A stretch of DNA of 64,000 nt from Ramlibacter sp. (GCA_019635435.1 JAHBZM010000001.1:2128587-2192586); one strand, 5' to 3'; shown: positions 21,914 through 39,389, counted from the first letter of the stretch. The notes: generated by a model from the letters alone, not told the origin. Numbers and translations: made by a program.

Positions 21914-21931
21914 CTCCTTGCAAAAGGGGTT

Positions 21932-23542: not shown

Positions 23543-23546
23543 GCGC

Positions 23547-24023
23547 TTACTTGAGGGGGATAACCGTGCCCGGCGGCAGCGCCACGGCGGTGACCGCGTT
23601 TTGCGGCGAGCCTTCAATCACGCGGTCGGAGTAGGTGAGGTAAACCAGCGTGTTGCGCCTGGTGTCGACCATGCGGATCACGCGCAGCTTCTTGAACACC
23701 AGCGAGATGCGTTCGCTGAACATCTCTTCCTGCTTGTCCAGCGGCTTGCCCGTGGGGAAGGTGATGGGGCCGGTCTGGCGGCAGGCAATCGACGCCTCGG
23801 CCTTGTCCTCGGCCAGGCCCAGCCCGCCCTTGATGCCGCCGGTCTTGGCGCGCGACACATAGCAGGTCACGCCGCCGACCTTGGGGTCGTCATAGGCGTC
23901 GACCACGATCTTGTGGTCGGGCCCGAAGAACTTGAACACCGTGTCGACTTCGCCGACCGATTCGCCGCCGGCCTTGCCGCAGGCGGCCAGCAGCAGCGCG
24001 ATCATGAGGCTGTATTTTTTCAT
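23547..24023 (-). CDS. CreA-family lipoprotein
   Basis: Lipobox LLAAC, about 158 aa, with a CreA-like sequence. Confidence 0.55.
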   Translation of the reverse strand: MKKYSLMIALLLAACGKAGGESVGEVDTVFKFFGPDHKIVVDAYDDPKVGGVTCYVSRAKTGGIKGGLGLAEDKAEASIACRQTGPITFPTGKPLDKQEEMFSERISLVFKKLRVIRMVDTRRNTLVYLTYSDRVIEGSPQNAVTAVALPPGTVIPLK

Positions 24024-24463
24024 CCCTCTGTCCTGGTTGGGGGAAACAGCCTTGGACTGTAGCGGCTTTGCCGCCGGGGCGTCAGAGCAGGCCGCGTGCG
24101 TCGGCGGCGCGGATGACCTGCATCAACTCGTCCACATCATCGGCCGTGGCCAGCGGCTTGCTGAGCGCCTGCTGCAGGTGGCGCGGCAGGCGCAGCGGCG
24201 GCGGTGGCCGGGTGGGCCGGGTCTGGGTGCTGGCGTCGGCATGGGCCGGCTCGGGGGTGGGGTACAGAAAAATCATGGCGTGCTTTCAAATCATCAATGG
24301 CTTGATGATGCGAGGCGCGCCGGGGCGCTCTGGTAGGCGGGGCGGGTATTTGGCTGTCAGCTTCGTCGGGTGGGCTTGTAGGCGATTGGCTTACTTTGCA
24401 GGCGGCTAGCCGGGGTGGGCGGCCCTTATGGATTCCTGACGCTTCCCCTGCCACACTTCGGTC

Positions 24464-25963
24464 ATGTTCACCGAATTCACGGGGCGACCGACCACGCGCA
24501 GCGCAGCCGCATTGTCGGCGGTGGGCCTTCTGGGGCTGGCGACCTTGCTGGCTTTCTGCCTGGATTCGCAGGTGTCGCTCACCAGCCTGGCCATGGTGTA
24601 CCTGCTGGCCGTGGTGGTGGCGGCGTATCTTCTGGACTGGGTGGCTTCGGCCGCCACGGCGGTGGCGGCTGTCACGGCACTCAATTTCCTCTTTGTTCCG
24701 CCGCGCTGGACGTTCGAAGTGGAGAGCCGGGATCATCTGATTGCGCTCTCCGCGATGTTGGTGGTGTCTCTGGTCATCAGCCATCTGGCGCGTGGGCTGC
24801 GGCGCGAGGCGGCGCTGGCCCGGCTCAACGAGCAGCGCGCGCAGCAACTCCAGTGGCTGGCAACCGAGCTGGGTGCCGCTCAAACCCCTCAGGAGGTGTG
24901 TGAGTTGGGGCGGCGGGCCTTGCTGCAGGCCTTCGCCGGGCCGGTGCTGCTGGTCGGGCTGGATCCTGATGGCTCGATGCAGACCGAACCGTCCGTTCCT
25001 TCTCTGGTGCGCCAGGGGCTGCAGCAATGCGTCAAGGAGAACGCCGTTCTGGGGCCGGGTACGGGTCGCTGGCCGGGTCTGAATGCCTGGTACCTGCCCA
25101 TGGGAAATGCCGAGGAGACGCTGGGCGTGGTGCAGGTTCAGCCCGCCCGGGCTGGCGACAACGAGGGCCGCCTGCATGCCGCCGCGCTGGTCGCGCTTTT
25201 GGGCCAGGCCCTGCTGCGGCTGAGGTTGAACAGGGCGGTGCTGGCGGCCCAGGGCGAAGCGCAGCGCCAGCATTTGCTCAACACCTTTTTGGCGGCGATT
25301 TCCCATGATCTTCGCACCCCCCTGGCCGCGATCACGGGGGCGGCCACTTCCCTGCAGACTCAGGGCGAGCGCTTGTCGCATGCCAGTCGGGAACGGCTCA
25401 TGGGCAGCATCGTGAGTGAGGCCACCTACCTCAATACCCTGGCAGAAAACACGCTGCACCTCACGCGCCTGACCTCGCAACAGACCATGTTGCCCCTGCA
25501 GTGGGAGTCGCTGGAGGAGCTGGTTGGCACGGCGGTGGCGCGCATTCGCCAGCGTGACCCCGATCGACGCATCAGCACAAGGGTCCAGCCCGGCCTGCCG
25601 CTGGTGCGCGCGGAACCGGTGCTGATGGGGCGGCTGCTGGCCAATCTGCTCGACAACGCGCTTCACTACAGCGACGGTCCGGTGGAGGTGACCGCGCAGG
25701 CGGGGCCGGCGGAACTCAGCCTCTGCGTCAAGGACAGGGGCCGCGGATTGACCGAAGAGCTCAAGGCCAGATTGTTCCTGCCCTTCAGCCGTGGCGACCA
25801 CACAGGCCTGCGCGGGGCTGGGTTGGGGCTGGCGGTGTGCCATGCCATTGCCAGTGCCCATGGCGGACGCCTGAGTGCACGCAATCGCAAGGGCGGTGGC
25901 GCGGCATTCTGTCTGACGCTGACACTTGAGCCTCAACCTGATCTGTCAGAGGCCATGCCGTGA
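24464..25963 (+). CDS. sensor histidine kinase, KdpD-like but lacking the N-terminal KdpD/Usp sensing domains
   Basis: Aligns with E. coli KdpD from the 4-TM segment onward (LAMVYLLAVVVAA / FVPPRWT), followed by GAF-like, HisKA (ISHDLRTPL) and HATPase domains. No N-terminal P-loop domain. Confidence 0.8.
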   Translation: MFTEFTGRPTTRSAAALSAVGLLGLATLLAFCLDSQVSLTSLAMVYLLAVVVAAYLLDWVASAATAVAAVTALNFLFVPPRWTFEVESRDHLIALSAMLVVSLVISHLARGLRREAALARLNEQRAQQLQWLATELGAAQTPQEVCELGRRALLQAFAGPVLLVGLDPDGSMQTEPSVPSLVRQGLQQCVKENAVLGPGTGRWPGLNAWYLPMGNAEETLGVVQVQPARAGDNEGRLHAAALVALLGQALLRLRLNRAVLAAQGEAQRQHLLNTFLAAISHDLRTPLAAITGAATSLQTQGERLSHASRERLMGSIVSEATYLNTLAENTLHLTRLTSQQTMLPLQWESLEELVGTAVARIRQRDPDRRISTRVQPGLPLVRAEPVLMGRLLANLLDNALHYSDGPVEVTAQAGPAELSLCVKDRGRGLTEELKARLFLPFSRGDHTGLRGAGLGLAVCHAIASAHGGRLSARNRKGGGAAFCLTLTLEPQPDLSEAMP

Positions 25964-26646
25964 AGCTGCGTGTGTTGCTGGTCGAGGACGATCCGCATGT
26001 CAGGGGGTTCATGCAGGAAGCCCTGTCGGTGGAGGGGTTCGAGGTCCTGACGGCGGCCTCGCTGAGCGAGGCGCAGGCCATGTTCCGGCACGGGGGTGTC
26101 GGCCTGATCCTGCTGGACCTGGGGCTGCCTGACGGCGACGGCGAAGTGCTGTTGCGCGAGATGCGCCAGCAAGGCAACCTGCCGGTCATCGTGGTCTCGG
26201 CGCGTGACCAGGAAGCGCAGAAGATTCAACTGCTCGACGCAGGCGCTGATGATTTCCTGACCAAGCCGTTCAGCGTGGGGGAATTGCTGGCTCGCATCCG
26301 GGTGAGCCTGAGGCACCGCGGCACCGCGCTATTGCCAGCCGTCACGCTGCACGCGCTTGATGATTTGCGCGTGGATCTGCAAAGACATGTGGTGTGCCTC
26401 AACGATGCCCCGGTTCACCTGACGCCCACCGAGTACCGGCTGCTGGCCCGCCTGGTCCGCCAGGCCGGACGCGTGGTCACGCACCGGCAACTGCTGGCTG
26501 ACGTCTGGGGCGCCGAGTTCACCGAGCACACACACTACCTGCGGCTGTACATGGCCCAGCTTCGAGCCAAGCTGGAGCGCAATCCGGCCGAGCCGCGCCA
26601 CCTGCTGACCGAGGCCGGCGTGGGCTACCGGCTGGCGGACACCTGA
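25960..26646 (+). CDS. kdpE: OmpR-family response regulator, KdpE-like
   Basis: REC domain plus winged-helix domain. Overlaps the kinase stop. Confidence 0.8.
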   Translation: MKLRVLLVEDDPHVRGFMQEALSVEGFEVLTAASLSEAQAMFRHGGVGLILLDLGLPDGDGEVLLREMRQQGNLPVIVVSARDQEAQKIQLLDAGADDFLTKPFSVGELLARIRVSLRHRGTALLPAVTLHALDDLRVDLQRHVVCLNDAPVHLTPTEYRLLARLVRQAGRVVTHRQLLADVWGAEFTEHTHYLRLYMAQLRAKLERNPAEPRHLLTEAGVGYRLADT

Positions 26647-26678
26647 GCCGCCCGCTGCTGCCCGCCCTTATGCTTTCC

Positions 26679-26695
26679 TGACACCCGGGGTGTCA
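26679..26695. promoter_or_regulatory. perfect inverted repeat TGACACCC-G-GGGTGTCA upstream of kup
   Basis: 8-bp arms with a 1-nt spacer, centred about 40 bp upstream of the kup start. Confidence 0.35.
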
Positions 26696-26726
26696 CATTG
26701 AAAGTCTTGCAACTTCCAGGGCATTC

Positions 26727-28625
26727 ATGAGCGACTCCCTCGTTTCCCCAGCTGACAGGCAACCCTCGGGGCGGGCACTGGGCATCCTGATGCTCGGCGC
26801 GTTGGGCGTCGTCTATGGCGACATTGGCACCAGCCCGCTTTACACCATGAAGGAGATATTTGGCGTGGCCAAGGTCCCCCTGGACGCGGCGCATATCGTG
26901 GGGGCCGTTTCCACCATTGTCTGGGGCCTGCTCATGGTGGTGACGCTCAAGTACGTCGTGCTGGTTCTGCGGGCCAACAACCGGGGCGAAGGCGGCGTTC
27001 TGGCACTGGCTGCCCTGGCTGCCCAGTCGGTGGGTGGCAAGAGCCAGCGACGGGCGGGATTGCTGCTGTTGGGCATGGCGGGCGCCGCGCTGTTTTACGG
27101 CGACAGCGTGATCACCCCGGCAATCTCGGTGCTCAGTGCAGTGGAAGGCCTGGAAATTGTGACGCCGTTGCTCAAGCCCTATGTCCTGCCGGTATCAATG
27201 GCCGTGCTGATCGCGCTGTTTGCCGTGCAGCGCCGGGGGACCGCGCGGGTGGGGCGCCTGTTTGGTCCCGTCATCCTGTTGTGGTTTGCGGTGTTGGCGT
27301 TCACCGGTGGGGTGCAGGTTGCGCGGCAGCCAGGGATATTGTGGGCACTCAACCCGCTTGAGGCGCTGGCCTTCCTGCGTGGACAGGGCTGGCATGTATT
27401 TGCGGCTGTCGGTGCCATCGTCCTGGCCTTTACCGGGGCCGAGACGCTTTACGCCGACATGGGGCACTTTGGCAAGCGGCCGGTCCGGTGGGCCTGGTCG
27501 GGCTACGTGCTTCCTGCACTGGCATTGCAGTACATGGGGCAGGGCGCACTGCTCATGCGGGATGCCTCGGCGCTGGAGAACCCCTTTTACCGGATGTTTC
27601 CCCAGGAGTGGCTGCTGCCCGCGGTGGCGCTGGCGACGCTGGCCACGGTGATTGCGTCGCAGGCCGTGATCTCGGGCGCGTATTCCATGACCCGCCAGGC
27701 GGTCCAGCTTGGCCTGCTGCCCCGCATGAAGGTGATCTATACATCCGCCAGAGATGCCGGGCAGATATACATGCCCCAGGTCAACTGGGTGCTGCTGGCG
27801 GCCGTGCTGGCCGCCGTGCTGGGCTTTGGCAGTTCCAGCGCGCTGGCTTCTGCCTATGGCATTGCCGTGACACTGACCATGTTCATCACCACCGTGCTGA
27901 CCTTCTTTGTGGTGCGCCATGGCTGGGGCTATCCCCTGCCACTGGCGCTGGGGGCGACGGGCGCCTTCCTGGCACTGGACGCACTGCTGGTGGCCTCTTG
28001 CGCGCTCAAGTTTCCGGAAGGGGGCTGGTTCCCCATTGCCGCTGGTATTGCCATCGTCCTGGTGATGACGACTTGGCGACGCGGGCGCGAAATTCTTCTG
28101 GACACCATTCGTCGCGATGATCCCGACCTTCAGCAATTCGTTCGTGGACTGGCAGGGAGTTTTCCGCAACGCGTGCCGCGAACCGCCGTCTATGCCGTGG
28201 CCAATCCAGACACCGTCCCCCAGGCCCTCATGCACAACCTCAAGCACAACCAGGTGCTTCACGAGCGCAACCTGATCCTGAATGTGGTGTTCCATGAGGT
28301 GCCGTGGATTCCTTTTGGCGAGAGGGTCAAGGTCACACCACTGGAGCCCGGCTTCTGGCGGGTGGAGGTGCACTATGGTTTCAAGAATATTCCGGACATC
28401 CCCCAGGCCCTCTCGCTATGTGCTGCCCAGGGCGTGGACATCAACCTGTTTGAAACGTCGTACTTCCTGAGCCGGGAAATCATCGTGCCCACCCGGGGGC
28501 CTGGCATGGCTGGCTGGCGTGAGGCGCTCTTCGCCCTGATGTCCCGCAACGCGGGCAATGCGGCGGACTTCTTCCGCTTGCCGGGCAATTGCGTGATCGA
28601 GTTGGGAACCCGGGTTCAGATCTGA
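26727..28625 (+). CDS. kup: KUP/HAK/KT-family potassium uptake protein
   Basis: 632 aa with the N-terminal [13 protein letters not shown] signature. Confidence 0.9.
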
Positions 28626-28627
28626 CG
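28581..28627 (+). repeat. direct repeat DR-L (native kup 3' terminus)
   Basis: CCGGGCAATTGCGTGATCGAGTTGGGAACCCGGGTTCAGATCTGACG. Confidence 0.7.
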
Positions 28628-28684
28628 GCACTACGCAACATCTGGCGTGAGCACTGGAGGTCAACCACAGGGCAGGTCGGCATA

Positions 28685-29065
28685 TCAAGTTTCGAGCGGT
28701 GGTTTGGCGGCCTCTTTCAAGCAACGCGTCATGTCCCGCTTGCGCTTCGCATTGGCTGCGCGCCAGGCGCTTCTGGCTAGTTCCACAAATCGATCCTCGG
28801 CAATATCAGGCGCGCGGGCTGTGCCCCGGTCCTGATCGAGCCAGCCCGTCGGTTGGCGGGCGTGGTGTTCGATCTGCCTGGCCAGCTTGTCGCTGATGGG
28901 GCGGGCACTCTTGATCTGGCTCCACATGCTGGGCGAGATTTCCAGCAGGGCGGCAAATGTCTGGTCCAGGCCCTTGGGTGCGTCGCCGGCCGCAATGCGC
29001 TCCTGCAAAAAGGTCTGGTAGAGCGCGACCACATTGGCGCGGCGGGTAACGGTGGTTGGGGGCAC
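28685..29065 (-). CDS. XRE-family (Cro/CI-like) helix-turn-helix regulator
   Basis: HTH-like segment FAALLEISPSMWSQIKSARPISDKLARQIEHHARQPTGWLD. GTG start. Divergent from the small-ORF unit and the tRNA array. Confidence 0.5.
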   Translation of the reverse strand: MPPTTVTRRANVVALYQTFLQERIAAGDAPKGLDQTFAALLEISPSMWSQIKSARPISDKLARQIEHHARQPTGWLDQDRGTARAPDIAEDRFVELARSAWRAANAKRKRDMTRCLKEAAKPPLET

Positions 29066-29110
29066 GTGTGGAAAAGCTGCAACAGCGGAAAAATTAATTG
29101 TCTCCGGTGT

Positions 29111-29145
29111 TGACCGGATCGTAAAGACTCTTTACAGTTCGCCCA
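29111..29145 (+). promoter_or_regulatory. sigma70-like promoter (TTGACC-N17-TACAGT) in the AT-rich stretch
   Basis: Lies 45 nt upstream of the small ORF's RBS. Confidence 0.35.
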
Positions 29146-29191
29146 CTGCCTGAAACGGCATGACCATTTTTATCAACACAAGGAACCGATC

Positions 29192-29323
29192 GTGATCACC
29201 AAGCCCGCATTCACAACCAGCTTGACCCATTTGGGTCGGCGTGCGTTGGTATGCGCCACGTTCATCCAGCCATGGATGAATGGCCGCGAGGATCGCCCTT
29301 TTCCGGGAATGGAAGACGTGTAG
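29192..29323 (+). CDS. small ORF (43 aa) with a strong RBS, followed by an intrinsic terminator
   Basis: AAGGAA RBS 6 nt before the GTG. Peptide MITKPAFTTSLTHLGRRALVCATFIQPWMNGREDRPFPGMEDV. The terminator lies about 30 nt downstream. No homology recognised. Confidence 0.35.
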   Translation: MITKPAFTTSLTHLGRRALVCATFIQPWMNGREDRPFPGMEDV

Positions 29324-29352
29324 ACGCTTCTTCCATCAGCTCTTTCGAGAGG

Positions 29353-29392
29353 CCCGGATTCCACAAGGATCCGGGCCTTTTTTTTCGCTCCT
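29353..29392 (+). terminator. intrinsic terminator (GGCCCGGAT-N8-ATCCGGGCC followed by T8)
   Basis: A perfect 9-bp GC-rich stem is immediately followed by TTTTTTTT. Confidence 0.75.
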
Positions 29393-29700
29393 TTTGGGGG
29401 TGCTTGCAGTGATCGCGCTGCAAGTCGCTGCGTCATGGCGCGGCGAATTGATCTTTAACAAGTTGCCGCGGGGCAGCGCCGGTACTGGCCGGACGCGAGC
29501 TCCGCAGAAAGAAGTGGATGCCGGTCTCATGCCGGTCATCTGCTCCATTTCGGGTGTGCCTATGCACCACCGTCGCCGCGCTGCCCTGGAGTGGGTGCGA
29601 CGGGATGTGCAGGGTGTCGCTCACCGTTGTGCAGCGAGGCTCACAGGCGGCGTCATGCCGTCTGCTCGCGCGTAGACACAGCCGAAATGGAGAAGCATTC

Positions 29701-29778
29701 GCCCCGTTAGCCCAGTGGAATCAGAGCACTGGCCTACGAACCCAGGGGTCGCACGTTCGAATCGTGCATGGGGCACCA
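29701..29778 (+). tRNA. tRNA-Arg(ACG)-like, with C12-A23 and C31-C39 stem mismatches; CCA encoded
   Basis: Hand-folded cloverleaf. Acceptor GCCCCGT/ATGGGGC, T-arm GCACG-TTCGAAT-CGTGC, anticodon loop CTACGAA identical to that of E. coli tRNA-Arg(ACG), discriminator A. Confidence 0.65.
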
Positions 29779-29785
29779 GATCAAA

Positions 29786-29863
29786 GTCGTGTTCGTCTAG
29801 ATGGCCAAGGACACCTGAATTTCAATCAGGAGATCGCGGGTTCGACTCCCGCACACGACGCCA
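29786..29863 (+). tRNA. tRNA-Glu(TTC); CCA encoded
   Basis: Lies 7 nt after the previous tRNA. Glu-type D-arm GTCTAGATGGCCAAGGAC, anticodon loop ATTTCAA, T-arm GCGGG-TTCGACT-CCCGC, discriminator G. Confidence 0.7.
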
Positions 29864-29954
29864 TCAAGACCAGAGCGAGCCCTCAGTAATGAGAGCTTGC
29901 GGAAACCGGTCGCAAAGATTGGGCGGCACCGGAACCCGTCACCGGAAATTCAGA

Positions 29955-30030
29955 GGTCCGTTAGCTCAGTGGCCAGAGTGGTTCCCTGTCGAGGAACAAG
30001 TCGCGGGTTCGACTCCCGCACGGACCGCCA
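29955..30030 (+). tRNA. tRNA-Asp(GTC); CCA encoded
   Basis: Acceptor GGTCCGT/ACGGACC, D-arm GCTC-AGTGGCCA-GAGT, anticodon stem GTTCC/GGAAC with loop CTGTCGA (G37), T-arm GCGGG-TTCGACT-CCCGC. Confidence 0.7.
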
Positions 30031-30075
30031 ATTCCGAGAACATCAACCAACCCGTTAACTTCCAAGGAGGACGAC

Positions 30076-30249
30076 ATGAAACGGCAACACACCGGCGAAC
30101 AGCCGCAACGCCAACCGGTCGTCGCCTTGGCGAGGAACCGAATGGCTTGGGCCAGGCTCTGGCGCGCCACGAAGCAGTGGCGCCGCCGCATGGTCGAAGC
30201 GGACGATGCCGACCTGGCACAGCGCGTTCGCCTGAGTGGCGAATGGTGA
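30076..30249 (+). CDS. small basic ORF (57 aa) with a strong Shine-Dalgarno, just upstream of the HNH gene
   Basis: AAGGAGG sits 6 nt before the ATG. The peptide MKRQHTGEQPQRQPVVALARNRMAWARLWRATKQWRRRMVEADDADLAQRVRLSGEW is Arg/Trp-rich. It falls below the ORF-track length cut-off. Confidence 0.3.
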   Translation: MKRQHTGEQPQRQPVVALARNRMAWARLWRATKQWRRRMVEADDADLAQRVRLSGEW

Positions 30250-30304
30250 GAGCAATGGTCCACCGTTTGACGAAAAAAAATTTTAGCAACGAAAGGAAAG
30301 CATC

Positions 30305-30868
30305 ATGCAAGCGCATGTCCTGCAACTCGATATCCAGGGAACCCCTCAGGCCTGGATTTCGCTGGAACAGGCCGCGCTGCATTACGCCACCGACGGCGTG
30401 GCGTGGGAAGACGGAGCAGGCCCTCTGGCCACCCTGCGTGGCGGCTGGAGCGTGGCGCGGGGTGTGCAGTCCACGCTGGCGGTGCACCCCATCATCGCCC
30501 TGCGCGGCTCGCCCCGACGCAACCTGTTTGATGTGGTGCCTGGCTTCAGCAAGTCCAAGCTGCTGCGGCGCGACCGTTTCACCTGCGCGTACTGCGCGCG
30601 GGTGTTTGCCGAGCGCGACCTGCAGTGCGAGCACATCCTGCCCGCATCGCGGGGGGGTGCGTGGTCGTGGATGAACCTGGTCACGGCCTGCGCCGCGTGC
30701 AATGGCCGCAAGGCCGACCGCACGCCCGAGGAGGCGGGCATGCCCCTGGTGTACCTGCCCTATGTGCCGACCCGCTTTGAGGATTTTCTTCTGGTGGGCC
30801 GCAACATCCGGGCCGACGTGCACCTGTGGCTGGCCTCTCGCCTGCCCAAAGGATCGCGACTGAACTGA
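30305..30868 (+). CDS. HNH endonuclease
   Basis: HNH motif CAYCARVF...CEHILPASRGG...NLVTACAACNGRK (paired CxxC and a catalytic His). 187 aa. Confidence 0.8.
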   Translation: MQAHVLQLDIQGTPQAWISLEQAALHYATDGVAWEDGAGPLATLRGGWSVARGVQSTLAVHPIIALRGSPRRNLFDVVPGFSKSKLLRRDRFTCAYCARVFAERDLQCEHILPASRGGAWSWMNLVTACAACNGRKADRTPEEAGMPLVYLPYVPTRFEDFLLVGRNIRADVHLWLASRLPKGSRLN

Positions 30869-31022
30869 GGCTGTCCACAGTCAGAGTTCAGCCCACACAT
30901 CTTCCGCAGAAGGCGAACGCTCACAGGAGCGGGGTTGGGGCAAAGGCCCGCCCCGCCGGTGTCATTGCCCGGGCCTGGCCCGTGGGCGGGTGACATGCCG
31001 CACCGCCGGAAACGGTTGATAC

Positions 31023-31076
31023 GGGTGATGTGGGGATACCTCCTCGACGAGCCGGGTTCGACTCCCGGATCACCCA
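31023..31076 (+). ncRNA. truncated tRNA-like element: 7-bp acceptor stem plus canonical T-arm, with D and anticodon arms replaced by one short hairpin (54 nt)
   Basis: GGGTGAT...ATCACCC acceptor pairing; T-arm CCGGG-TTCGACT-CCCGG; discriminator A; no CCA. It abuts the next tRNA, 3 nt away. It could be a tRNA pseudogene remnant or a tRNA-mimic RNA. Confidence 0.4.
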
Positions 31077-31079
31077 CCC

Positions 31080-31152
31080 CATTGGATAGCTCAGTCGGGT
31101 AGAGCAGTCTTTGCATAAAAGACCGGTCACGGGTTCGACTCCCGTTCCAAAG
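31080..31152 (+). tRNA. tRNA-Met/Ile2-like (anticodon CAT) with G33, an A2-A71 mismatch and no encoded CCA
   Basis: Canonical D-arm TAGCTCAGTCGGGTAGAGCA. Anticodon stem GTCTT/AAGAC with loop TGCATAA. T-arm ACGGG-TTCGACT-CCCGT. Confidence 0.55.
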
Positions 31153-31160
31153 CAAACCAG

Positions 31161-31231
31161 GGTCGAAAGACCCGCGCCGCTGCAGTCGCGGGGCAAGCCT
31201 GATCCGACGTTGCCGCCCCGAGCGGCAACGC
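31161..31231 (+). other. three consecutive GC-rich hairpins (GGGTC-GAAA-GACCC; CCGC-N7-GCGG; CGTTGCCGC-N5-GCGGCAACG) immediately 3' of the tRNA array
   Basis: Perfect stems with no U-tract. Possibly RNA processing or stability elements. Confidence 0.4.
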
Positions 31232-31430
31232 AGGACCGGACGAGCCCTGCAACTGCCCTCGGTGGCGGCCGGCGCTGAAACCGCCCGGTCCGCGCCCACG
31301 GCCAGCACAGGCTGCCTTGCCGGGTGGCCTGAGCGCACCGTGACGCCCGGCCCTGTGCCTTCAGCGTTTGCAGCCCCCGTTGCCGCGGCGCACCCCTTCA
31401 TTCACACGCATCCAACACAAGGAGAACACC

Positions 31431-32570
31431 ATGGAATTCAAGCGTGTCAGCATCAAGAAAAACGAGCGCGGCATCCTGCTGCGCAATGGTGACTTTGACC
31501 GCGTGCTGCGGCCCGGCCGTCACCTGCTGTTCAGCGGTCTGGACACGCTGCGCGTGGAAAACTTCGCGCTCGACCAACCCGCATTCGCCCACAGTCTGGC
31601 GGACTACCTCATGGCCAGGGAAGCCGGGGTGGTCGCGGCCGAGTTCGTGCGCGTCGAGCTGGGCGAGACCCAAGCCGGCCTGCGTTCCGAGAACGGCGTG
31701 TTGGTGGAAGTGCTTGCTCCCACCACGCGGCGCCTGTACTGGAAGGGGCTGGTGGACGTGCAGGTGGAGGTGATCGACCTGGTCGCCTCGCCCGAGCTCG
31801 CCCCTGGCACGGTGGCCCGCCTGACGCAGACCCAGCTGCGCCAACGTGGCGTGACCGGCCTGGCCGGTGTGCTGCAGGTGCAGGTGCCCGAACACTCGGT
31901 GGGCGTGCTGACCGTTGACGGCAAGGTGGAACGCCTGCTGGTGCCCGGTGCGTACGCGTTCTGGAAGTTCAACCGCAATGTGGCGGTGGATCTAGTGGAC
32001 ATGCGCCTGCAGTCGCTGGAAGTCACGGGCCAGGAAATCCTGACCCGCGACAAAGTCAGCCTGCGGCTGAACCTGGCGGCCACCTGGCGCTACACCGATG
32101 TGCTCAAGGCCTTCACCCAGCTGCAAAAGCCCGCGGAACACCTGTACCGCGAGCTGCAGTTCGGGCTGCGCGCCGCTGTGGGCACCCGCACGCTGGATGA
32201 GCTGCTGGAGAACAAGACGGTCATCGACGAAGTGGTGACCACCTATGTGCGTGGCCGCCTGTCCGCGTGGGGGCTGGCGCTGGACGGCGTGGGTGTGAAA
32301 GACATCGTGCTGCCCGGCGAGATGAAAACCATCCTGGCCCAGGTGGTCGAGGCGGGCAAGTCGGCGGAAGCCAACGTGATCCGCCGGCGCGAAGAAACCG
32401 CCGCCACGCGTTCCCTGCTCAACACGGCCAAGGTCATGGAGGACAACCCCGTGGCCCTGCGCCTGAAGGAGCTGGAAACGCTGGAGCGTGTGGCCGAGCG
32501 CATCGACAAGATCTCCGTCTTCGGCGGTCTGGACCAGGTGCTCAACGGGCTAGTGAAGCTCAAGCCCTAG
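31431..32570 (+). CDS. SPFH/band-7 (slipin-like) domain protein, no predicted TM segment
   Basis: AAGGAG RBS. SPFH core from about residue 170 (VDLVDMRLQSLEV...). C-terminal coiled-coil-like region. Confidence 0.7.
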   Translation: MEFKRVSIKKNERGILLRNGDFDRVLRPGRHLLFSGLDTLRVENFALDQPAFAHSLADYLMAREAGVVAAEFVRVELGETQAGLRSENGVLVEVLAPTTRRLYWKGLVDVQVEVIDLVASPELAPGTVARLTQTQLRQRGVTGLAGVLQVQVPEHSVGVLTVDGKVERLLVPGAYAFWKFNRNVAVDLVDMRLQSLEVTGQEILTRDKVSLRLNLAATWRYTDVLKAFTQLQKPAEHLYRELQFGLRAAVGTRTLDELLENKTVIDEVVTTYVRGRLSAWGLALDGVGVKDIVLPGEMKTILAQVVEAGKSAEANVIRRREETAATRSLLNTAKVMEDNPVALRLKELETLERVAERIDKISVFGGLDQVLNGLVKLKP

Positions 32571-32621
32571 CAACCCTCCGGGGGCGGCCTTTGGTCGCCC
32601 CCGTTCTTTGGAAACAACATC

Positions 32622-33632
32622 ATGGAAACACAAGAGAAGAAAAAGAAAGTCAAACAGCCGCCCGTGCTGTTTGCCAGGACGCAGGCCGTGATGGCCCAGC
32701 TTGGAGATTGTCTGGGCGGCCCTGTGGTGAGCTACTGGAACAACCCGCGAGGCTCGGTGTGCCAGTCAGACGTGGTGGCGCTGTATGACGTGCTGGCACG
32801 TCTGGGCCGGCACGACACCATGTACCTGTTCATCAAGTCCGACGGGGGCAGCGGCCAGGTGTCGCTGCGCCTGGTCAACCTGCTGCGCCAACACTGCCGC
32901 CAGCTCGTGGCGCTGGTGCCGCTGGAGTGCGCATCGGCCGCGACGATGATTGCGCTGGGCGCGGACCGCATCCTGATGGGGCCTACCGCCTATCTGACGG
33001 CGGTGGACACCTCGCTGAACCATGCGCTGTCGCCTGTGGACCGTGACAACGACCGTGTGAACGTCAGCCTGGATGAACTCAACCGGGTAATCCGGCTGTG
33101 GCGCGACCAGCAGGGCGAGCAGGCCGAGAACGCCTACAAGTCGCTGTTCCAATACGTGCACCCGCTGGTGATCGGCGCCGTTGATCGCGCCGAATCGCTG
33201 TCCATCATGCTGTGCCGCGAGTTGCTGGCCAACCACATCGCCGATGAGGCAGTGGCCGAGCAGATAGCGGCGACGCTGAATGCCAAATACCCGTCGCACA
33301 GCTACCCCATCCTGCTGGATGAGGCCGTCAAGATCGGCCTGAAAGCCGAGCGCATGCCGCAAGAGGTCAACACCCTGTTGCTGCAACTGAACGGCTACTA
33401 CAGTGAAATGGGGCAGAAGGCGACGACCGACTTTGACGAGATCAGGGCCCATGGCAATGAGATCGTCAACATCTGGGAGGCGTCGGGCACGCAGGTGTTC
33501 TACCAACAGGACAAGGACTGGTTCTACCGCGCCGAAGAACGGCGCTGGATCACCATGAACGACAACAGCGGATGGCGCCGCATTGAACGAAACGGCTCAC
33601 GCATCAAGCGCACCTTGCTGCACGTGGCCTGA
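32622..33632 (+). CDS. ClpP/crotonase-fold serine protease (SDH/NfeD/S49-like)
   Basis: Motifs KSDGGSG and ECASAATMIALGAD are typical of Clp-fold serine proteases. This class partners with SPFH proteins. Confidence 0.55.
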   Translation: METQEKKKKVKQPPVLFARTQAVMAQLGDCLGGPVVSYWNNPRGSVCQSDVVALYDVLARLGRHDTMYLFIKSDGGSGQVSLRLVNLLRQHCRQLVALVPLECASAATMIALGADRILMGPTAYLTAVDTSLNHALSPVDRDNDRVNVSLDELNRVIRLWRDQQGEQAENAYKSLFQYVHPLVIGAVDRAESLSIMLCRELLANHIADEAVAEQIAATLNAKYPSHSYPILLDEAVKIGLKAERMPQEVNTLLLQLNGYYSEMGQKATTDFDEIRAHGNEIVNIWEASGTQVFYQQDKDWFYRAEERRWITMNDNSGWRRIERNGSRIKRTLLHVA

Positions 33633-33664
33633 GCGGCCTGCCATGGCGGGCCAAAAGGAAAAAC

Positions 33665-34885
33665 ATGAAAGAAACCAACTACATCGAAGAGCAAACCCCC
33701 GGCGGCGTGCCCATCAAGATGTGGACGCGCGGCGTGCCGGTGGAAGACGAGGCCCGACGCCAGCTCAGCAACGCGGCGCGGCTGCCCATTGTGTTCAGGC
33801 ACGTGGCCGCCATGCCTGATGTGCACTTTGGCATCGGGGCCACTGTGGGCTCGGTCATTCCCACCTTCCGCGCCATCATCCCCGCGGCGGTGGGGGTGGA
33901 CATTGGCTGCGGCATGATCGCCAGCAAAACCACGCTGACGGCTGAAGACCTGCCCGACAACCTGGGGCCGCTGCGCTCGGCCATCGAGCGAGCCGTGCCG
34001 CATGGCCGCGCACCCGGTGCGCGCGACCCCGGCGCCTGGCACAAGGTGCCAGGGTCGGTGGACACCGCCTGGGCCCAACTGGAGCCCGAGTTCACCGAGC
34101 TTTGCCGTGACTACCCCAAGCTGCGCAAGACCAACAACCACAACCACCTGGGCACCCTGGGCACGGGTAACCACTTCATTGAGGTCTGCCTGGACGAGCA
34201 GGGCGCGGTTTGGTTCATGCTGCACTCGGGCTCACGCGGCGTGGGCAATGCCATTGGCACCATGTTCATCGAACTGGCCAGGCAGGACGCCATGCGCAAC
34301 AACGTGAACCTGCCTGACCGTGACCTGGCGTACTTTGAAGAAGGCTCGCGCTACTTTGGCGACTACGTGCGGGCCGTGGGCTGGGGCCAGAAGTTTGCGC
34401 GCCTGAACCGTGAGGTGATGATGCGCCGCGTGATCGAGGCGGCCAAGACCGTGATCCGCAAGAACTTCCAGAGCCACATCGAGGCGGTCAACTGCCACCA
34501 CAACTATGTGCAACGGGAACGCCACTTTGGGGAAGATGTTTACGTGACCCGCAAGGGCGCCGTGAGCGCCCAGGCGGGTGAACTGGGCATCATCCCCGGC
34601 AGCATGGGCGCGCGCAGCTACATCGTGCGTGGCAAGGGCAACCCCGAAAGCTTCGCCTCGTGTTCGCACGGGGCAGGGCGCACCATGAGCCGTGGCGAAG
34701 CCAAGCGCCGGTTCACGCTGGCCGACCACCGCGCCGCCACCGAAGGCGTTGAATGCCGCAAGGACAAGGACGTGATTGACGAAACGCCCGCGGCCTACAA
34801 GGACATTGACGCCGTGATGGCGGCGCAGCAAGACCTGGTGGACGTGGTGCACACGCTCAAGCAGGTGGTGTGCGTGAAAGGGTGA
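33665..34885 (+). CDS. rtcB: RNA-splicing ligase RtcB (3'-phosphate/5'-hydroxyl RNA ligase)
   Basis: 406 aa. Conserved RtcB metal and GTP-binding His residues (DVHFG, GNHF, HNH region). Confidence 0.85.
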   Translation: MKETNYIEEQTPGGVPIKMWTRGVPVEDEARRQLSNAARLPIVFRHVAAMPDVHFGIGATVGSVIPTFRAIIPAAVGVDIGCGMIASKTTLTAEDLPDNLGPLRSAIERAVPHGRAPGARDPGAWHKVPGSVDTAWAQLEPEFTELCRDYPKLRKTNNHNHLGTLGTGNHFIEVCLDEQGAVWFMLHSGSRGVGNAIGTMFIELARQDAMRNNVNLPDRDLAYFEEGSRYFGDYVRAVGWGQKFARLNREVMMRRVIEAAKTVIRKNFQSHIEAVNCHHNYVQRERHFGEDVYVTRKGAVSAQAGELGIIPGSMGARSYIVRGKGNPESFASCSHGAGRTMSRGEAKRRFTLADHRAATEGVECRKDKDVIDETPAAYKDIDAVMAAQQDLVDVVHTLKQVVCVKG

Positions 34886-34902
34886 AACGCATCGCCCATC
34901 GA

Positions 34903-34930
34903 GCCGACCCGAAAGGGTCGGCTTTTTTTT
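34903..34930 (+). terminator. intrinsic terminator after rtcB (GCCGACCC-GAAA-GGGTCGGC followed by T8)
   Basis: Perfect 8-bp stem, GNRA tetraloop and a TTTTTTTT run. Confidence 0.8.
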
Positions 34931-35015
34931 GGTCGCAGGGTGGTCTACCCTTGCTTCAACGCCGTCAGATCAATCGCAATCGTCATGCGCGAGTCAGCCA
35001 GATCGTCGGCCATCG

Positions 35016-35408
35016 TCATGGTGCAGGGGGCCACGGCCCCGGGACGGTCACGGCTTCGTCAGGGCCAGGCCAGGGCGGCATGGTGATGGCCACCGCAGAT
35101 ACCCCCTCCGTAGCCGCGGCCCGAAACTGGAAGTGCGTACCCAGTGGAATGGTCAGGCAAACACCCGGTTCGAGCACCACAGTTTCTTCACGCTCGCCCT
35201 GCTTGCGCCACATCTCGCCACGCCCGGCCACCACAAACCAGATCTCTTCCACCGTGCGGTGCGTCACGGCCTGGGCCACCTGGCCGGCGCGCAGCGTGAA
35301 ATGCGCCATGCCGCCTCCCTGCAAGCCCAGCAGGATGCGCACATCCGAGCCATCGGGTGCCACCACTGTCGCGACGGCGGGGAGAGGCATGGTATTGAAC
35401 GCGGTCAT
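35016..35408 (-). CDS. cupin-domain protein
   Basis: 130-aa small-barrel cupin_2-like sequence. Confidence 0.5.
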   Translation of the reverse strand: MTAFNTMPLPAVATVVAPDGSDVRILLGLQGGGMAHFTLRAGQVAQAVTHRTVEEIWFVVAGRGEMWRKQGEREETVVLEPGVCLTIPLGTHFQFRAAATEGVSAVAITMPPWPGPDEAVTVPGPWPPAP

Positions 35409-35596
35409 GGTTGGGCGCTACCAGTTACAAACTCCATCAGATCGGCAGACAGAATGACGGGCACTTGCGGAAAGTACCCGGACTGGTTCGGCTGTGCCGT
35501 GAGCGCACAAATGTTTTTGGAATACATGCATCCTCCGCTGTTTGAATAGTGGTTCAAATTCTGCCGCATAACGTCTCCAGGCTGCTGCTCCACAAC

Positions 35597-35643
35597 GCGG
35601 GCAGTTGCCTGGTCGAGCGGGGGACCCGGGTTCAGATCTGACG
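35597..35643 (+). repeat. direct repeat DR-R (diverged copy of the kup 3' terminus)
   Basis: GCGGGCAGTTGCCTGGTCGAGCGGGGGACCCGGGTTCAGATCTGACG. In frame it encodes AGSCLVERGTRVQI-stop, against kup [14 protein letters not shown]-stop. Confidence 0.7.
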
Positions 35644-35645
35644 CA

Positions 35646-36104
35646 TCAAGGCGCGCGCCCCGGCGCCACCATGGCCGTGGCCAGCGCCAGGCCGGGCGCC
35701 GTGGGGTGGGCCGTGTCCACCAGAACGCCTTCTGCAAAGCTGAAATTTCTGGCCGGGCGGACCACATGGGCCCGGAAGGCGAGTGAATCGCTGGCGCTCG
35801 CCAGCGACAGGAACTTGACGGAGAGTTCCAGCGTGACGACCACCTCACTGTCGTAGTGCCCCAAGCCGGCGAGCACGAAGGCCGCGTCAAAACCCGCGGA
35901 GATGACTCCCCCATTGAGCGCCGTCGTGCCGCCACCGCCCAGCGGGCCAGGGGCCAGCCCTGACAGGGTGACAACCGCGGTGCCGGGTTCCTCGAACGCA
36001 CCCTTGAAGCCGAACCACAAGACCTCTTTGCGCGCGTTGAACTGCAGCAGTTGCTGTGCGCGCCTTTCAGGCGACAGGCGAAAAGCGGCCGAAGGAAGTT
36101 GCAT
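35646..36104 (-). CDS. hotdog-fold thioesterase superfamily protein
   Basis: Start taken at the internal Met (MQLPSAAF). PaaI-like hotdog sequence. Confidence 0.55.
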   Translation of the reverse strand: MQLPSAAFRLSPERRAQQLLQFNARKEVLWFGFKGAFEEPGTAVVTLSGLAPGPLGGGGTTALNGGVISAGFDAAFVLAGLGHYDSEVVVTLELSVKFLSLASASDSLAFRAHVVRPARNFSFAEGVLVDTAHPTAPGLALATAMVAPGRAP

Positions 36105-36132
36105 GGCAGTACCGTCCTCAATCAAGCGGGGC

Positions 36133-36639
36133 TCAACCCAGCAGCGCAGGGTTGAGCTGCCAGGTGGCGAGCGTGAGTGCCGACGCGAACGACACCCATG
36201 CCAGGTAGGGCAGCAGCAGCATGGCCGCCAGCCTGCTGACGCGCCAGAACAGGCCGATGGTGAGGGCGATCAGCACCCACAGCAGAACAATCTCTGCCAA
36301 CGCCAGCCCGCCTTGCCGCCAGACGAAAAAGAGCCAGGTCCACAGCGCATTGGCCGCCAGCTGGAGCATGAACACCAGCAGCGCGTTGCGTGCGCCCGCA
36401 AAACCGCGCGCGCGCCAGACCAGCCAGGCCGAGATGCCCATCAACGCATACAGAGCCGACCAGACCGGCGCAAACAGCCAGCCCGGGGGCGCCCAGGCGG
36501 GGCGAATCAGGTCGCGGTAGAAATCACCCGCGTTGGCCGATGCCAGACCGCCCACCGCGGCCGCGGCAAAAGCGACGGCCAGCCAGCCGATCAGGCCCAG
36601 GGTTTGGCGTGCGGGTGACCTGGCAGGGCGTTGAGTCAT
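36133..36639 (-). CDS. tspO: TspO/MBR-family tryptophan-rich sensory protein
   Basis: 168 aa, five TM segments, Trp-rich. Confidence 0.8.
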   Translation of the reverse strand: MTQRPARSPARQTLGLIGWLAVAFAAAAVGGLASANAGDFYRDLIRPAWAPPGWLFAPVWSALYALMGISAWLVWRARGFAGARNALLVFMLQLAANALWTWLFFVWRQGGLALAEIVLLWVLIALTIGLFWRVSRLAAMLLLPYLAWVSFASALTLATWQLNPALLG

Positions 36640-36756
36640 TGGAGGTGCTGACGATAGGGATGCCCTGCATTCTCCGGCAGTTGTTCAACTGGGTGTGCGC
36701 CCTCCGGATTCAGTCAACTTGTCGCGGGTGGTTGAGCGGCCTCTTTTGACATTTGC

Positions 36757-39144
36757 CTAATAGAGGTACACCGCCCCCGAATTGCTCTGGCTTGCATCGG
36801 CCTGGTTGCCACCAATGCCGCCCGAGCCACCGTCTTCTGAGGCCGCACCCACGGCGAGGGTATTGCCATCGGCCGACAGCGCCACCGCACCGCCAAACCG
36901 GTCGCCCGCGCCGGTATTGGGTGCCTTCAGGTAGGCCGACTGCGACCACGCCGCGCCGCTGCGCTTGAACATGAAGACGGCGCCGGCATCCGCCGCGGCG
37001 GTGTTGGCCTGGTCCCCGTTGAAACCCGTGGCGTTGCTGTCTTCACGGTAAGACGACACGGCCAGCGTATGGCCGTCCGCCGACATGAACATCGCATTGC
37101 CAAAGCGATGTGGTGTTCGCGTGTTGGAGGGCTTCAGGTACGCCTGCTGTGACCAGGTTGCGCCCGCACGGGTGAACACAAATGCGGCGCCCGAATTCAA
37201 GGCCAGCGCATTGTCGACGGGGTTGACTGCGAACACGCCGGTGTTGTTGCTGCTCTCGCCGTCCATCCCCACGCCCAGGGTGTTGCCGTCGGCCGACAGG
37301 ACAACTGCCACTCCGAACCGGTCATTGGCTTCGGGCAGCGGCGCCTTCAGGTAGCTCTGCTGCGCCCACAGGTTGCCCGTGCGCTGAAAGACGTAGGCGG
37401 CTCCCGCGTTGGACAAGGAGTTGTCGCCCGGGGCCGCCGCGTCGGCGCTTTGCTCAAAAAACGCGCCCACCGCGACGGTGTCACCACTGCCCGAGAGCGC
37501 CAGTGATATGCCGAAGAAATCGCCCGCGCCCGCGTTGGATGCCTTGAGGTAGCCCTGGGCCGACCAGACGCCCCCTGTGCGCGTGAACACATGGACGGCC
37601 CCTGAGCCGAAGTAAGCGCCGTTGCCGTGCGCGCCCGTCTGGTCCGCGCTCTCGTAATAGGCGGCCACCGCCAGCGTGTCGCCGTTGGTGGACAGCCTCA
37701 CGGTGGTCCCGAACAGGTCGCCAGCGTACGCGTTGGGTGCCTTGATGAAGGCCTGGCGCGACCACACCGCGCCACTGCGGGTGTAGACATACACGGCGCC
37801 AGCGCTGGCTGCCAGATTGTTGGTGGCCGGCATCACGGTGAAGGTGCCGGTCTGGTTGCCCGACTCCCCGTCGGCCCCGATGGCCAGCGTGCTGCCGTCG
37901 CCCGACAGGGCCAGCGCGTTGCCAAAGTAGTCGTTGGCATCCGGGTTGGGCGCTGCAATTCGGGCCTGCTGGGTCCACGTGGCCCCGGTTTTGGTGAAGA
38001 CATACACAGCGCCCGTGTTGCCGCCCTCACCGTAGGCTCCAACGGCCATCGTCGAACCGTCGGCCGACAACGCCACCCGGTTGCCGAAGCGGGCCTCCAC
38101 CGCCGGCGAGGCCGCCTTGAAGTAACCGATGGCCTGCTTCATGTCGGGCGCCACCGCCGCCGAGCTCGGCCCACACCCGCTCACGTTGCAGGCCTGCACG
38201 GTGTAGGTGGCGCTCAGGCGCGTGTGCAGCAGCACCGGGACCGCATACGCCAGGCTGGTTGTGAAACTGCTTTGCCCGATCTGCACCCGGGGCAGGGGTC
38301 CGGCGCCGTCCGGGTCTTCGTACACCAGGTAGCTCTGGGCATCTGCCACAACGTTCCATGAAAAGTTCAAGGCCTTGGCCGCGTAAGTGATGGTCAGGCC
38401 CGGCGCGGCGGTGGGAGCGGGTGGCGGCGGCGGGGGTGGCGGCGGAGGCGGGGGCTCCGGCGGGGGCGGCGGCACCACTGCGCTGCAGTGGACCAAGGCT
38501 TGGCTCTGCTGCCCTGCGCTGCCCGTGCCCTGCAACACACTGCACAGCATCCCGGCCGGTTGCACAGCCACCGTGACGGTGTAGGGCGTGCCGTGCGCCA
38601 GCGGGGTGGCGAAGCTGAAGGACCCGTTGGCAGGCACGGACAGGTTTTCTGCCCCGTTGATCTGAAGCACCACGGTGCCTACCAGGCCCGTCACCTCGAC
38701 GGTGATGGGGTAGGTGTTGTCGGAGCATGACACCAGAATATCGTTGACGGGCCCCACAGCCGTCCCCGTGCCGTTGGCCACCACACAGGTCTGCCCCGTG
38801 GGCTGCGTTTTGACCACCAGGTGGTAGGCGGTGCCGACCGCCACCGTCACGGAATAGTGGCCTGAAGACGTCAGCTCCACTTCAAGAGTGCCGTTGTTCT
38901 GCAGAACCACCTTGCCCTTCAGGCCGACCAGGGTGCCGCCAATGGTCGTTTCGGCGCTTGGCGTGTCCGGAGGGCCCACGGGGGCGTCGCTGCCCCCGCC
39001 GCAAGCCGCCAGCGTCATGAGCAAAGGGAACGCCAGACACGCTGCGGCCCAACGCCTCAGGTGGTTGAAGTTGACGGTGACCCGGCCCTTCAAGGCCAAC
39101 AGGGAAACGTGCCCGCGTGAAAGCCGGCCAACAAAACATTGCAT
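36757..39144 (-). CDS. large surface lipoprotein with Ig-like domains, a poly-proline linker and FG-GAP-type beta-propeller repeats
   Basis: Lipobox LAAC. Run of PPPPPEPPPPPPPPPPPPAPTAAPG. Repeats of the form DG-TLAVGA...GAVYVF-R-G--W-Q-AYLKA-N. Start uncertain: ATG at 39144, or GTG around 39084 giving MTVNFNHLRRW. Confidence 0.65.
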   Translation of the reverse strand: MQCFVGRLSRGHVSLLALKGRVTVNFNHLRRWAAACLAFPLLMTLAACGGGSDAPVGPPDTPSAETTIGGTLVGLKGKVVLQNNGTLEVELTSSGHYSVTVAVGTAYHLVVKTQPTGQTCVVANGTGTAVGPVNDILVSCSDNTYPITVEVTGLVGTVVLQINGAENLSVPANGSFSFATPLAHGTPYTVTVAVQPAGMLCSVLQGTGSAGQQSQALVHCSAVVPPPPPEPPPPPPPPPPPPAPTAAPGLTITYAAKALNFSWNVVADAQSYLVYEDPDGAGPLPRVQIGQSSFTTSLAYAVPVLLHTRLSATYTVQACNVSGCGPSSAAVAPDMKQAIGYFKAASPAVEARFGNRVALSADGSTMAVGAYGEGGNTGAVYVFTKTGATWTQQARIAAPNPDANDYFGNALALSGDGSTLAIGADGESGNQTGTFTVMPATNNLAASAGAVYVYTRSGAVWSRQAFIKAPNAYAGDLFGTTVRLSTNGDTLAVAAYYESADQTGAHGNGAYFGSGAVHVFTRTGGVWSAQGYLKASNAGAGDFFGISLALSGSGDTVAVGAFFEQSADAAAPGDNSLSNAGAAYVFQRTGNLWAQQSYLKAPLPEANDRFGVAVVLSADGNTLGVGMDGESSNNTGVFAVNPVDNALALNSGAAFVFTRAGATWSQQAYLKPSNTRTPHRFGNAMFMSADGHTLAVSSYREDSNATGFNGDQANTAAADAGAVFMFKRSGAAWSQSAYLKAPNTGAGDRFGGAVALSADGNTLAVGAASEDGGSGGIGGNQADASQSNSGAVYLY

Positions 39145-39355
39145 GGTGATGGGTCCTCGTCTGCACCCGTGGCCCAACAACGGCCGGTCATGCAGGGATC
39201 CGATGGGCCTGTGTGCCAAGCCTGAATCGGGCCCGAATGATGCAATGGCGTGGGGCGTGGTTGCAGTGGTGCAAACCCATCCAAACTTCAGTAGGGTTGA
39301 CAAACGCAGCGACGCCAACGCGTCAGCGTCCGGGCAATAGTTGCTACCAATTCCG

Positions 39356-39389
39356 TAGCAAGAAGTGGCCGCCCCGTCTGGACTCCAGG
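39356..39389. repeat. interspersed ~34-bp repeat, copy d (inverted)
   Basis: GTGGCCGCCCCGTCTGGACTCCAGGCCTATTTGCC. Confidence 0.6.

Follow-up and report, generated by a model that had tools for sequence, protein, structure and literature searches.

The window analysed here is a stretch of 64,000 nucleotides from Ramlibacter sp. (GCA_019635435.1, JAHBZM010000001.1:2128587-2192586; positions are counted from its first letter), in which a block of 7,016 bp, 28628-35643, lies directly behind the transporter gene kup. This gene (26727-28625, plus strand) is intact, with Pfam K_trans_C covering residues 484-632 in full and a full-length C-terminus. The last 45 nt of kup, stop codon (28623-28625) included, form together with the next 2 nt one copy of a 47-nt direct repeat, DR-L (28581-28627, plus strand; CCGGGCAATTGCGTGATCGAGTTGGGAACCCGGGTTCAGATCTGACG), which we read as attL. 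The other copy, DR-R (35597-35643, plus strand; GCGGGCAGTTGCCTGGTCGAGCGGGGGACCCGGGTTCAGATCTGACG; core 35613-35642), is intergenic and is read as attR. The two are identical at 40/47 positions and at all 20 of the 3′ 20 nt, and their starts lie 7016 nt apart. An earlier note on this DNA, made from the sequence alone, had proposed an insertion bounded by these repeats; its coordinates, identity and perfect 3′ end were all reproduced. This is the top 47-nt direct match in 26000-38000, and the 21-nt repeat core occurs twice in the window against none expected. First-order Markov randomisations (n = 30) peak at 29-33 matching positions. A chance repeat is therefore ruled out, both by the randomised maximum of 33/47 and by the core count.

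The two copies also share an in-frame tail and stop, as had been claimed: the kup stop lies inside DR-L, Kup itself reading ...ALMSRNAG and on through its tail, and DR-R reads ...LLLHNAGSCLVERGTRVQI and a stop in the same frame. DR-R is part of no gene, and a 238-aa open reading frame (ORF) that overlaps its region has no Pfam match. A weaker second repeat match is suggestive, and no more, of a kup-like stretch that starts at 35582 and has suffered a 30-nt deletion. Together with the frame comparison and the comparison of sites between genomes, this defines a putative kup-like pseudo-terminus (the P arm) at 35582-35643 on the plus strand, DR-R included.

Members of the thioesterase and HNH protein clusters led us to five further Ramlibacter assemblies, which with the window form two lineages. 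In lineage 1 (the window, L154 and L155) the order is kinase, regulator, kup, attL, island, attR and thioesterase. Lineage 2 comprises L001, which has the kup genes and an empty site, and L156 and L157, which lack the kup cassette. L001, a metagenome-assembled genome (MAG; Ramlibacter sp. ACE_PRO44), was the one near-identical locus in a scan of Kup with one genome per species (99% amino acid identity). Here kup is followed directly by the thioesterase, TspO and a large FG-GAP protein, which is exactly the relative that the earlier note had suggested seeking. L001 4827-11901 aligns to window 21570-28627 and L001 11856-15713 to window 35598-39461. The 46 nt common to both alignments (11856-11901) match both repeats, such that L001 holds a single repeat copy with the join exact at the repeat. 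Thus neither of the outcomes that the note had named as contrary to an insertion, the want of an empty site or a DR-R belonging to an unrelated gene, is what we found. In none of 80 kup loci was the gene followed by another copy of the repeat or by any gene of the island.

The empty site of L001 is identical to attL of L154 and matches DR-L of the window at 45/47 positions and DR-R at 40/47. Since the site is closer to DR-L than to DR-R, it was the insertion that brought in the diverged left part of DR-R. On this comparison that left part is shown to be an element-borne, diverged copy of the kup 3′ end, as would fit an attP arm mimicking the kup terminus. The attR of L154 (...GTCGAGTTGGGGACACGGG...) differs from that of the window (...GTCGAGCGGGGGACCCGGG...), with CG in the window where L154 has TT, and L154 has one private C>A; thus each attR carries private changes. 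The 20 nt that the earlier note took as the perfect core hold between the window copies, but comparison with L154 suggests that the ancestral perfect core was probably 30 nt (TCGAGTTGGGGACCCGGGTTCAGATCTGAC, window 28597-28626). In these terms attL and attR differ by about 7-8 changes and an indel in the left 32 nt and by none in the reconstructed right 30 nt. Recombination of attP with attB should leave a perfect block beside a diverged arm, as seen here, whereas uniform decay of a duplication should not. Two other sources of the repeats were tried and rejected. A transposon target-site duplication would be far shorter than 47 imperfect nt, and there are no terminal inverted repeats and no transposase. 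For a Xer/dif-type element, the core lies within a gene end and is, judged by eye, unlike a dif site.

The island begins with a short left arm (the P′ arm; 28628-28684), which runs from the core to the orf126 stop and is absent from L001; homology to related modules in other genomes begins only at about 28720-28739. The gene orf126 (28685-29065, minus strand), divergent from the tRNA operon, encodes a phage-repressor-like regulator (phrog_12107 'transcriptional repressor', E 2.8e-8) without a Pfam or NCBIfam match. On the plus strand there follow a structured leader RNA of about 155 nt (29541-29694) and genes for tRNA-Arg(ACG) (29701-29778; Rfam 50 bits), tRNA-Glu(UUC) (29786-29863; 59.5 bits) and tRNA-Asp(GUC) (29955-30030; 66.3 bits), all called by ARAGORN. 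Next come a small ORF of 57 aa (30076-30249), which has no Pfam match and has counterparts of 56-58 aa at the same position in L116, L121, L154, L155 and L156, and an HNH endonuclease gene (30305-30868; Pfam HNH_5 and HNH). Behind it lies a tRNA-like minihelix (31023-31075), consisting of an acceptor stem and T arm only and scoring 29.6 bits as mascRNA-like and 22.4 bits as YrlA, both below the Rfam gathering score. An aberrant tRNA with a CAU anticodon (31080-31153; ARAGORN, Rfam tRNA 42.6 bits) has, as read from the sequence, G at position 33 and no encoded CCA. Every Ramlibacter copy of the module yields such a call; in other genomes a normal tRNA (Lys, Asn or Met) stands between HNH and SPFH.

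On the plus strand the remainder of the island encodes an SPFH/Band-7 protein (31368-32570; Pfam Band_7, E 4e-29), whose true start is likely 31431 (379 aa), as called in L154 and L156, a ClpP-like SDH-type serine protease (32622-33632; Pfam SDH_protease, E 5e-11; NCBIfam Clp_like_SDH below cut-off) and the RNA ligase RtcB (33665-34885; Pfam RtcB, E 7e-128). An intrinsic terminator (34903-34930, plus strand), read from the sequence and common to L156 and L157, closes the RtcB gene and forms the right end of the conserved module; homology to L144 stops at 34886. Beyond it, on the minus strand, lie a cupin-domain protein gene (35016-35408; Pfam Cupin_2, E 8e-8; MBX3587054 is the 124-aa form) and a lipoprotein gene remnant (35409-35530) with a 926-nt internal deletion at 35476. 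The cupin gene occurs only in the kup-integrated version of the island, being absent from L156, L157, L144 and L148. The gene list of the earlier note was thus borne out, except that it had missed the cupin gene and the lipoprotein remnant beside DR-R. The first genes past the island, both on the minus strand and matched by Pfam, are those for a PaaI-type thioesterase (35646-36104/36125), which is contiguous with kup in L001, and TspO (36133-36639).

The GC content is about 0.65 in the flanks and dips to 0.54-0.62 between about 28.8 and 30.4 kb, where the island is non-coding or carries its tRNA genes; the coding part (0.62-0.70) is like the flanks. The low-GC interior reported earlier is therefore real, but modest and limited to that part, and the case for a foreign origin of the island is comparative, not compositional. 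Elsewhere in the window, GC falls to 0.57 at 39.4-40.0 kb, and 39462-40683 and 41165-42094 have no counterpart in the L001 alignment and may be further indels. ARAGORN also called a 96-nt tRNA-Ile(GAU) at 6392-6487 (minus strand), which has no Rfam tRNA match at the gathering threshold and is probably a false positive.

Scans of the island ORFs with Pfam, NCBIfam and PHROGs, and of alternative frames with Pfam, revealed no recombinase, excisionase, relaxase or transposase domain, which confirms the earlier statement that the island ORFs include no integrase or excisionase. Conjugation genes were likewise absent when the island ORFs were scanned with Pfam, NCBIfam, PHROGs and PADLOC. We therefore rejected a self-integrating island, integrative mobilizable element (IME) or prophage, as there is no tyrosine or serine recombinase of its own and there are no phage structural genes. 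A defence system was also rejected, PADLOC giving just generic HNH matches, and a 349-aa ORF of L154, considered as a recombinase, proved to be a lipoprotein gene instead. Only RtcB of the island matched the phage libraries, apart from what are presumably short tRNA matches. No relatives of the orf126, protease and cupin proteins were found in IMG/VR, and an exact-sequence look-up of RtcB returned no record. A degenerate kup-terminus pattern gave one chance match in IMG/VR and no phage contig with a kup terminus, and a search of plasmids for the right end (cupin, lipoprotein, attR) gave no match.

The comparison of the six Ramlibacter loci shows that more than the island has moved. In L156 and L157 the same module, running from orf126 to RtcB, sits directly between the left boundary (window 24391/24392) and the thioesterase, with no kup-like sequence, cupin gene, lipoprotein gene or flanking repeats. 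What they lack on the left is a kup cassette, recently exchanged (24392-28627, plus strand), in which Pfam and NCBIfam identify genes for a KdpD-like histidine kinase (24464-25963) and a KdpE-like response regulator (25960-26646) ahead of kup, all on the plus strand. Identity between lineages amounts to 86-89% in the left flank and 94-96% in the right, against 98.5-99% for the kup cassette and 93-99% for the module; between the window and L001 identity steps sharply at about 24391 from 86% in the left flank to 98.5-99% in the cassette. As the cassettes are more similar than the flank, both the kup cassette and the module have moved between lineages after their split. The island's host gene kup thus looks, from these comparisons, to have been acquired horizontally itself. 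The target gene is intact but cannot be regarded as simply native, since its cassette was recently exchanged and L156 and L157 lack it. No other Ramlibacter stood among the best 80 Kup loci, the next-best of which were 77-78% identical and included Curvibacter and Hylemonella MAGs.

On the right the slot is bounded by the ancestral stop of the thioesterase gene: homologues end ...MVAPGR-stop or ...MVAPAR-stop, and the proteins here end ...GRAP-stop or ...GRPVRI-stop. In L156 (8395-8523 and 14709-14724; L157 likewise) the thioesterase 3′ extension ending ..GRPVRI-stop (CGACCCGTCCGGATCTAG) is faintly like an inverted kup terminus; its alignment score of 15, against a shuffled 95th percentile of 14, may be chance. 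A third copy of the core at the left edge of the kup cassette was sought by local alignment, which stayed at null level. Polarisation by outgroup failed because synteny is not conserved around the thioesterase homologues L158 and L159, the intended outgroups. Within the island, the lipoprotein gene is intact in L154, where it encodes 349 aa with a signal peptide and a lipobox-like ...VACGGGG; of this gene 15173-16098 (926 nt) are deleted in the window. Conversely, the tRNA-Asp segment (window 29948-30056) is kept in the window only and is missing from L154-L157. As far as these assemblies tell, the island is decaying differently in each strain.

We interpret 28628-35643, with fair but far from full confidence, as an att-flanked island at the kup 3′ end resembling a cis-mobilizable element (CIME; as defined in PMC6323972), which would have been placed there by site-specific recombination without a recombinase of its own. 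Direct repeats stand at both ends, one of them within the kup 3′ end, and a relative has the single-copy empty site. A circular form, itself presumed, would have carried an attP made up of the diverged kup 3′-end copy, the core and the short arm beside orf126, and would have recombined with the ~30-nt core at the kup terminus. The catalyst would most likely have been a tyrosine-type integrase, a class that we infer only from the long identity core. Its gene, which is not on the island, would either have decayed and been lost or belong to a related element acting in trans. The product would be attL inside an intact kup and, at attR, a dead kup-like tail beside the thioesterase. In this respect the earlier suggestion that the element carries a replacement kup terminus needs amending: the kup-like arm is there, but it is a dead pseudo-terminus at attR, and Kup is its own up to the core, with at most the last few codons replaced. 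All three lineage 1 genomes are occupied, with 98-99% identity among them, which suggests that one event lies behind them.

Several observations weigh against this interpretation. The empty site of L001 is compatible with gain of the island and with its excision alike, so that the direction of the event we can only infer. Besides the island's lack of an integrase or excisionase, weak tests found none in the 64-kb window, and neither a circular form nor a second copy of the att core was seen. The coding part of the island is like its flanks in base composition. Moreover, the arrangement of L156 and L157 is produced neither by Campbell integration nor by simple deletion, and the kup cassette is 98.5-99% identical across lineages whose left flank is only 86% identical. 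This contrast means that the locus also undergoes cassette exchange by another route.

Such exchange might account for the whole. The kup cassette and the module could have arrived or been rearranged separately, without a site-specific recombinase, at a hotspot of homologous and illegitimate recombination, perhaps through transformation anchored by homology on one side, with the kup-like tail at 35582-35643 as the decayed relic of an earlier kup next to the thioesterase and L001 the result of a RecA-mediated deletion between the 47-nt repeats. Three configurations of the slot with shared sharp boundaries in six closely related genomes, and cassettes far more alike between lineages than the left flank, are what this would lead us to expect; moreover, the module of L156 and L157 lacks repeats, no recombinase is present, and the tail carries a 30-nt deletion as a pseudogene might. 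However, divergence between the repeats is not uniform, as about 7-8 changes and an indel fall in the left 32 nt while the reconstructed right 30 nt have none; the join in L001 is exact at the repeat, and deletion across 30 nt of perfect identity is inefficient. Several independent events would also be needed where integration needs one. We consider shuffling unlikely as the full explanation, though it is the alternative we take most seriously. The locus is still less well explained by the HNH endonuclease spreading the module through homing-like repair of double-strand breaks, with the repeats as a by-product, an idea that we hold to be very improbable. The gene is conserved (its best 120 listed homologues are 76-100% identical), lies among tRNA genes in every copy including those on phage contigs, and the module occurs in many contexts without a recombinase. 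Yet homing would not create 47-nt imperfect direct repeats of its target, no HNH target site was identified at the locus, and the equivalent HNH gene of Anabaena is co-regulated with a stress response, which fits as well as mobility or better (PMC8421152, PMC10272220). Lastly, we give next to no credence to a block ancestral to all relatives with a chance or functionally constrained repeat. The composition of the coding part, matching the flanks, would agree with it; against it stand the 40/47 match, beyond the random maximum of 33/47, a block missing from L001 exactly at the repeat, and a DR-R that lies in no gene.

If the island was indeed placed by site-specific recombination, its closest counterparts are known. 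CIME19258 and CIME302 lie at the fda 3′ end in Streptococcus thermophilus. Like CIMEs, the kup island has attL and attR as direct repeats, one over the 3′ end of a protein gene, lacks integration and transfer genes, and has empty sites in relatives. Unlike them, it has no known cognate integrative and conjugative element or IME with the same att site, its host is betaproteobacterial, its target is kup, its cargo is an RNA module, and its mobilisation is predicted. The dusA-specific integrase family likewise serves elements that insert into protein-coding genes (PMC4482086). As in islands and prophages of that kind, the element carries the end of the target gene, the gene stays intact, and the repeats are imperfect outside a perfect core; those elements, however, encode an integrase beside the att site and the kup island encodes none. 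A literature search directed at kup as an integration site turned up neither kup in that role nor such a cargo in an att-flanked islet.

The cargo itself recurs widely. The recurrent unit is an orf126 homologue on the minus strand, the leader, a tRNA array, the HNH gene, one more tRNA and SPFH, optionally with the SDH protease and RtcB. At E<=1e-20 there are 1284 homologues of the HNH protein. Its relatives adjoin tRNA arrays in bacteria, more distant ones doing so in phage contigs (L086, L087), and the gene is found on megaplasmids of Variovorax, Methylibium and Polaromonas, V. paradoxus having the leader-tRNA part as well; Variovorax plasmids with tRNA arrays have been described (PMC7313664). 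Homologues of orf126 lie upstream of the arrays in L116, L119, L120, L121, L124 and L148. The number of tRNA genes varies from 8 in L119 (Scleromatobacter) to 25 before and 1 after HNH in L120, 23 in L122, and 5 (with 1 more after HNH) in L148. The orf126 stop is the shared left end of the module in unrelated contexts, with neighbours as different as p450 (L121), Wadjet (L120), CdsA and an epimerase (L148) and type IV secretion genes (L116). The right end, where seen, is the RtcB terminator, beyond which L144 has a TRAP transporter. No flanking repeats were found around the module in L148 and L156.

Some of these contexts deserve description in their own right. In L120 (1-6184) the 25-tRNA copy adjoins a Wadjet (JetB/C/D) defence cluster and a DUF4357 gene. 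In an IMG/VR provirus from an isolate genome (L084, 1-3079), a 78% identical HNH homologue is followed 1.2 kb later by a tyrosine integrase and phage antirepressor genes, which suggests that prophages insert beside or into the tRNA following HNH. In Scleromatobacter humisilvae (L119, 8753-17823) the genes for RtcR, a Ro60-like vWA protein, a tRNA-like RNA (14552-14610), RtcB, RlaP and RtcA stand behind an 8-tRNA array and HNH, so that the array module and a complete Rtc/Ro RNA-repair operon are physically joined. A Burkholderia stagnalis replicon listed as a plasmid (L081, 7545-10487) has an SPFH gene with a duplicated N-terminal region and then RtcB, without a protease, and B. cenocepacia, B. 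multivorans and B. arboris give similar DNA matches over this stretch. The SPFH-RtcB pairing thus recurs beyond the tRNA-array context.

A further constant feature is the leader RNA, which lies directly upstream of the first tRNA in every array copy. Besides that of the window we placed it at L116 9516-9672, L119 8589-8740, L120 7312-7466, L121 4277-4427, L122 5594-5750, L124 827-974, L148 6736-6884 and L133 701-860. An alignment of 10 copies folds under RNAalifold into a consensus of one long closing stem and three inner helices, with 95.5% of cells paired and compensatory changes at 14 of 42 pairs. None of 500 shuffles reached 14/42, and controls with slid partners gave 1-6. Invariant G.U pairs place the RNA on the strand of the tRNAs. 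No Rfam family matched it, even at E<=10.

Judged by its gene content, the cargo of the window is a reduced derivative of a module of known kind, the tRNA 'L-array', which occurs in many Burkholderiales contexts. The definition of an L-array asks for 20 or more tRNA genes, packed at 2 or more per kb (PMC4758250); L120 (26) and L122 (23) qualify, and the window, with three tRNAs and one aberrant one, falls short of it. It does have HNH and RtcB in the cassette, with a patchy, horizontally transferred distribution. Cyanobacterial L-arrays spread horizontally, have conserved HNH and rtcB neighbours and are induced under translational stress (PMC8421152), and the TrcR regulon comprises the trn operon, the HNH gene, rtcB, a slipin gene and a cupin gene (PMC10272220). 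The module discussed here shares with these systems an adjacent regulator, a tRNA array, HNH, rtcB, SPFH/slipin and cupin genes, horizontal spread and a presence on megaplasmids. It differs in having 3-4 tRNA genes in the window instead of at least 20, a phage-repressor-like regulator instead of the cyanobacterial ribbon-helix-helix protein TrcR, and components fused in one compact cassette with a structured leader RNA. The RtcR-controlled RNA repair operons, rtcBA and the rsr-Y RNA-rtcBA operon of Salmonella, offer a second comparison. As in these, an RtcB ligase lies near a tRNA-like RNA, and the L119 copy links array and HNH to RtcR, a Ro60-like protein, RtcB, RlaP and RtcA. In the window, by contrast, RtcB is without RtcR, RtcA and Ro60, and its companions are an SPFH protein and a ClpP-like protease.

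The most likely role of the module, judged from its resemblance to the Anabaena trn operon and TrcR regulon, is to provide spare tRNAs and to mend cleaved tRNA or rRNA when translation comes under attack from antibiotics, toxins or phage-related nucleases. We also put forward, as a speculation that we ourselves find rather doubtful, that the unit from regulator to RtcB, the protease being optional, is a self-contained 'translation-rescue' cassette that circulates through Burkholderiales chromosomes, megaplasmids and phages without a recombinase. The leader would then be a new cis-regulatory or sensor RNA triggered by tRNA or ribosome damage, and att sites at the kup end would be one of several routes of capture.

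The integration principle invoked here is textbook, and current ideas on genomic islands are not overturned. What the kup locus offers is a clean, empty-site-verified case of an accessory block at the 3′ end of a transporter gene without an integrase of its own. The Ramlibacter locus is, moreover, a hotspot at which at least two cassettes have been swapped between lineages. Its cargo ties the tRNA arrays of betaproteobacteria to the translational-stress modules of cyanobacteria, and the leader RNA could open the regulation of supernumerary tRNA operons to tests beyond the cyanobacteria.

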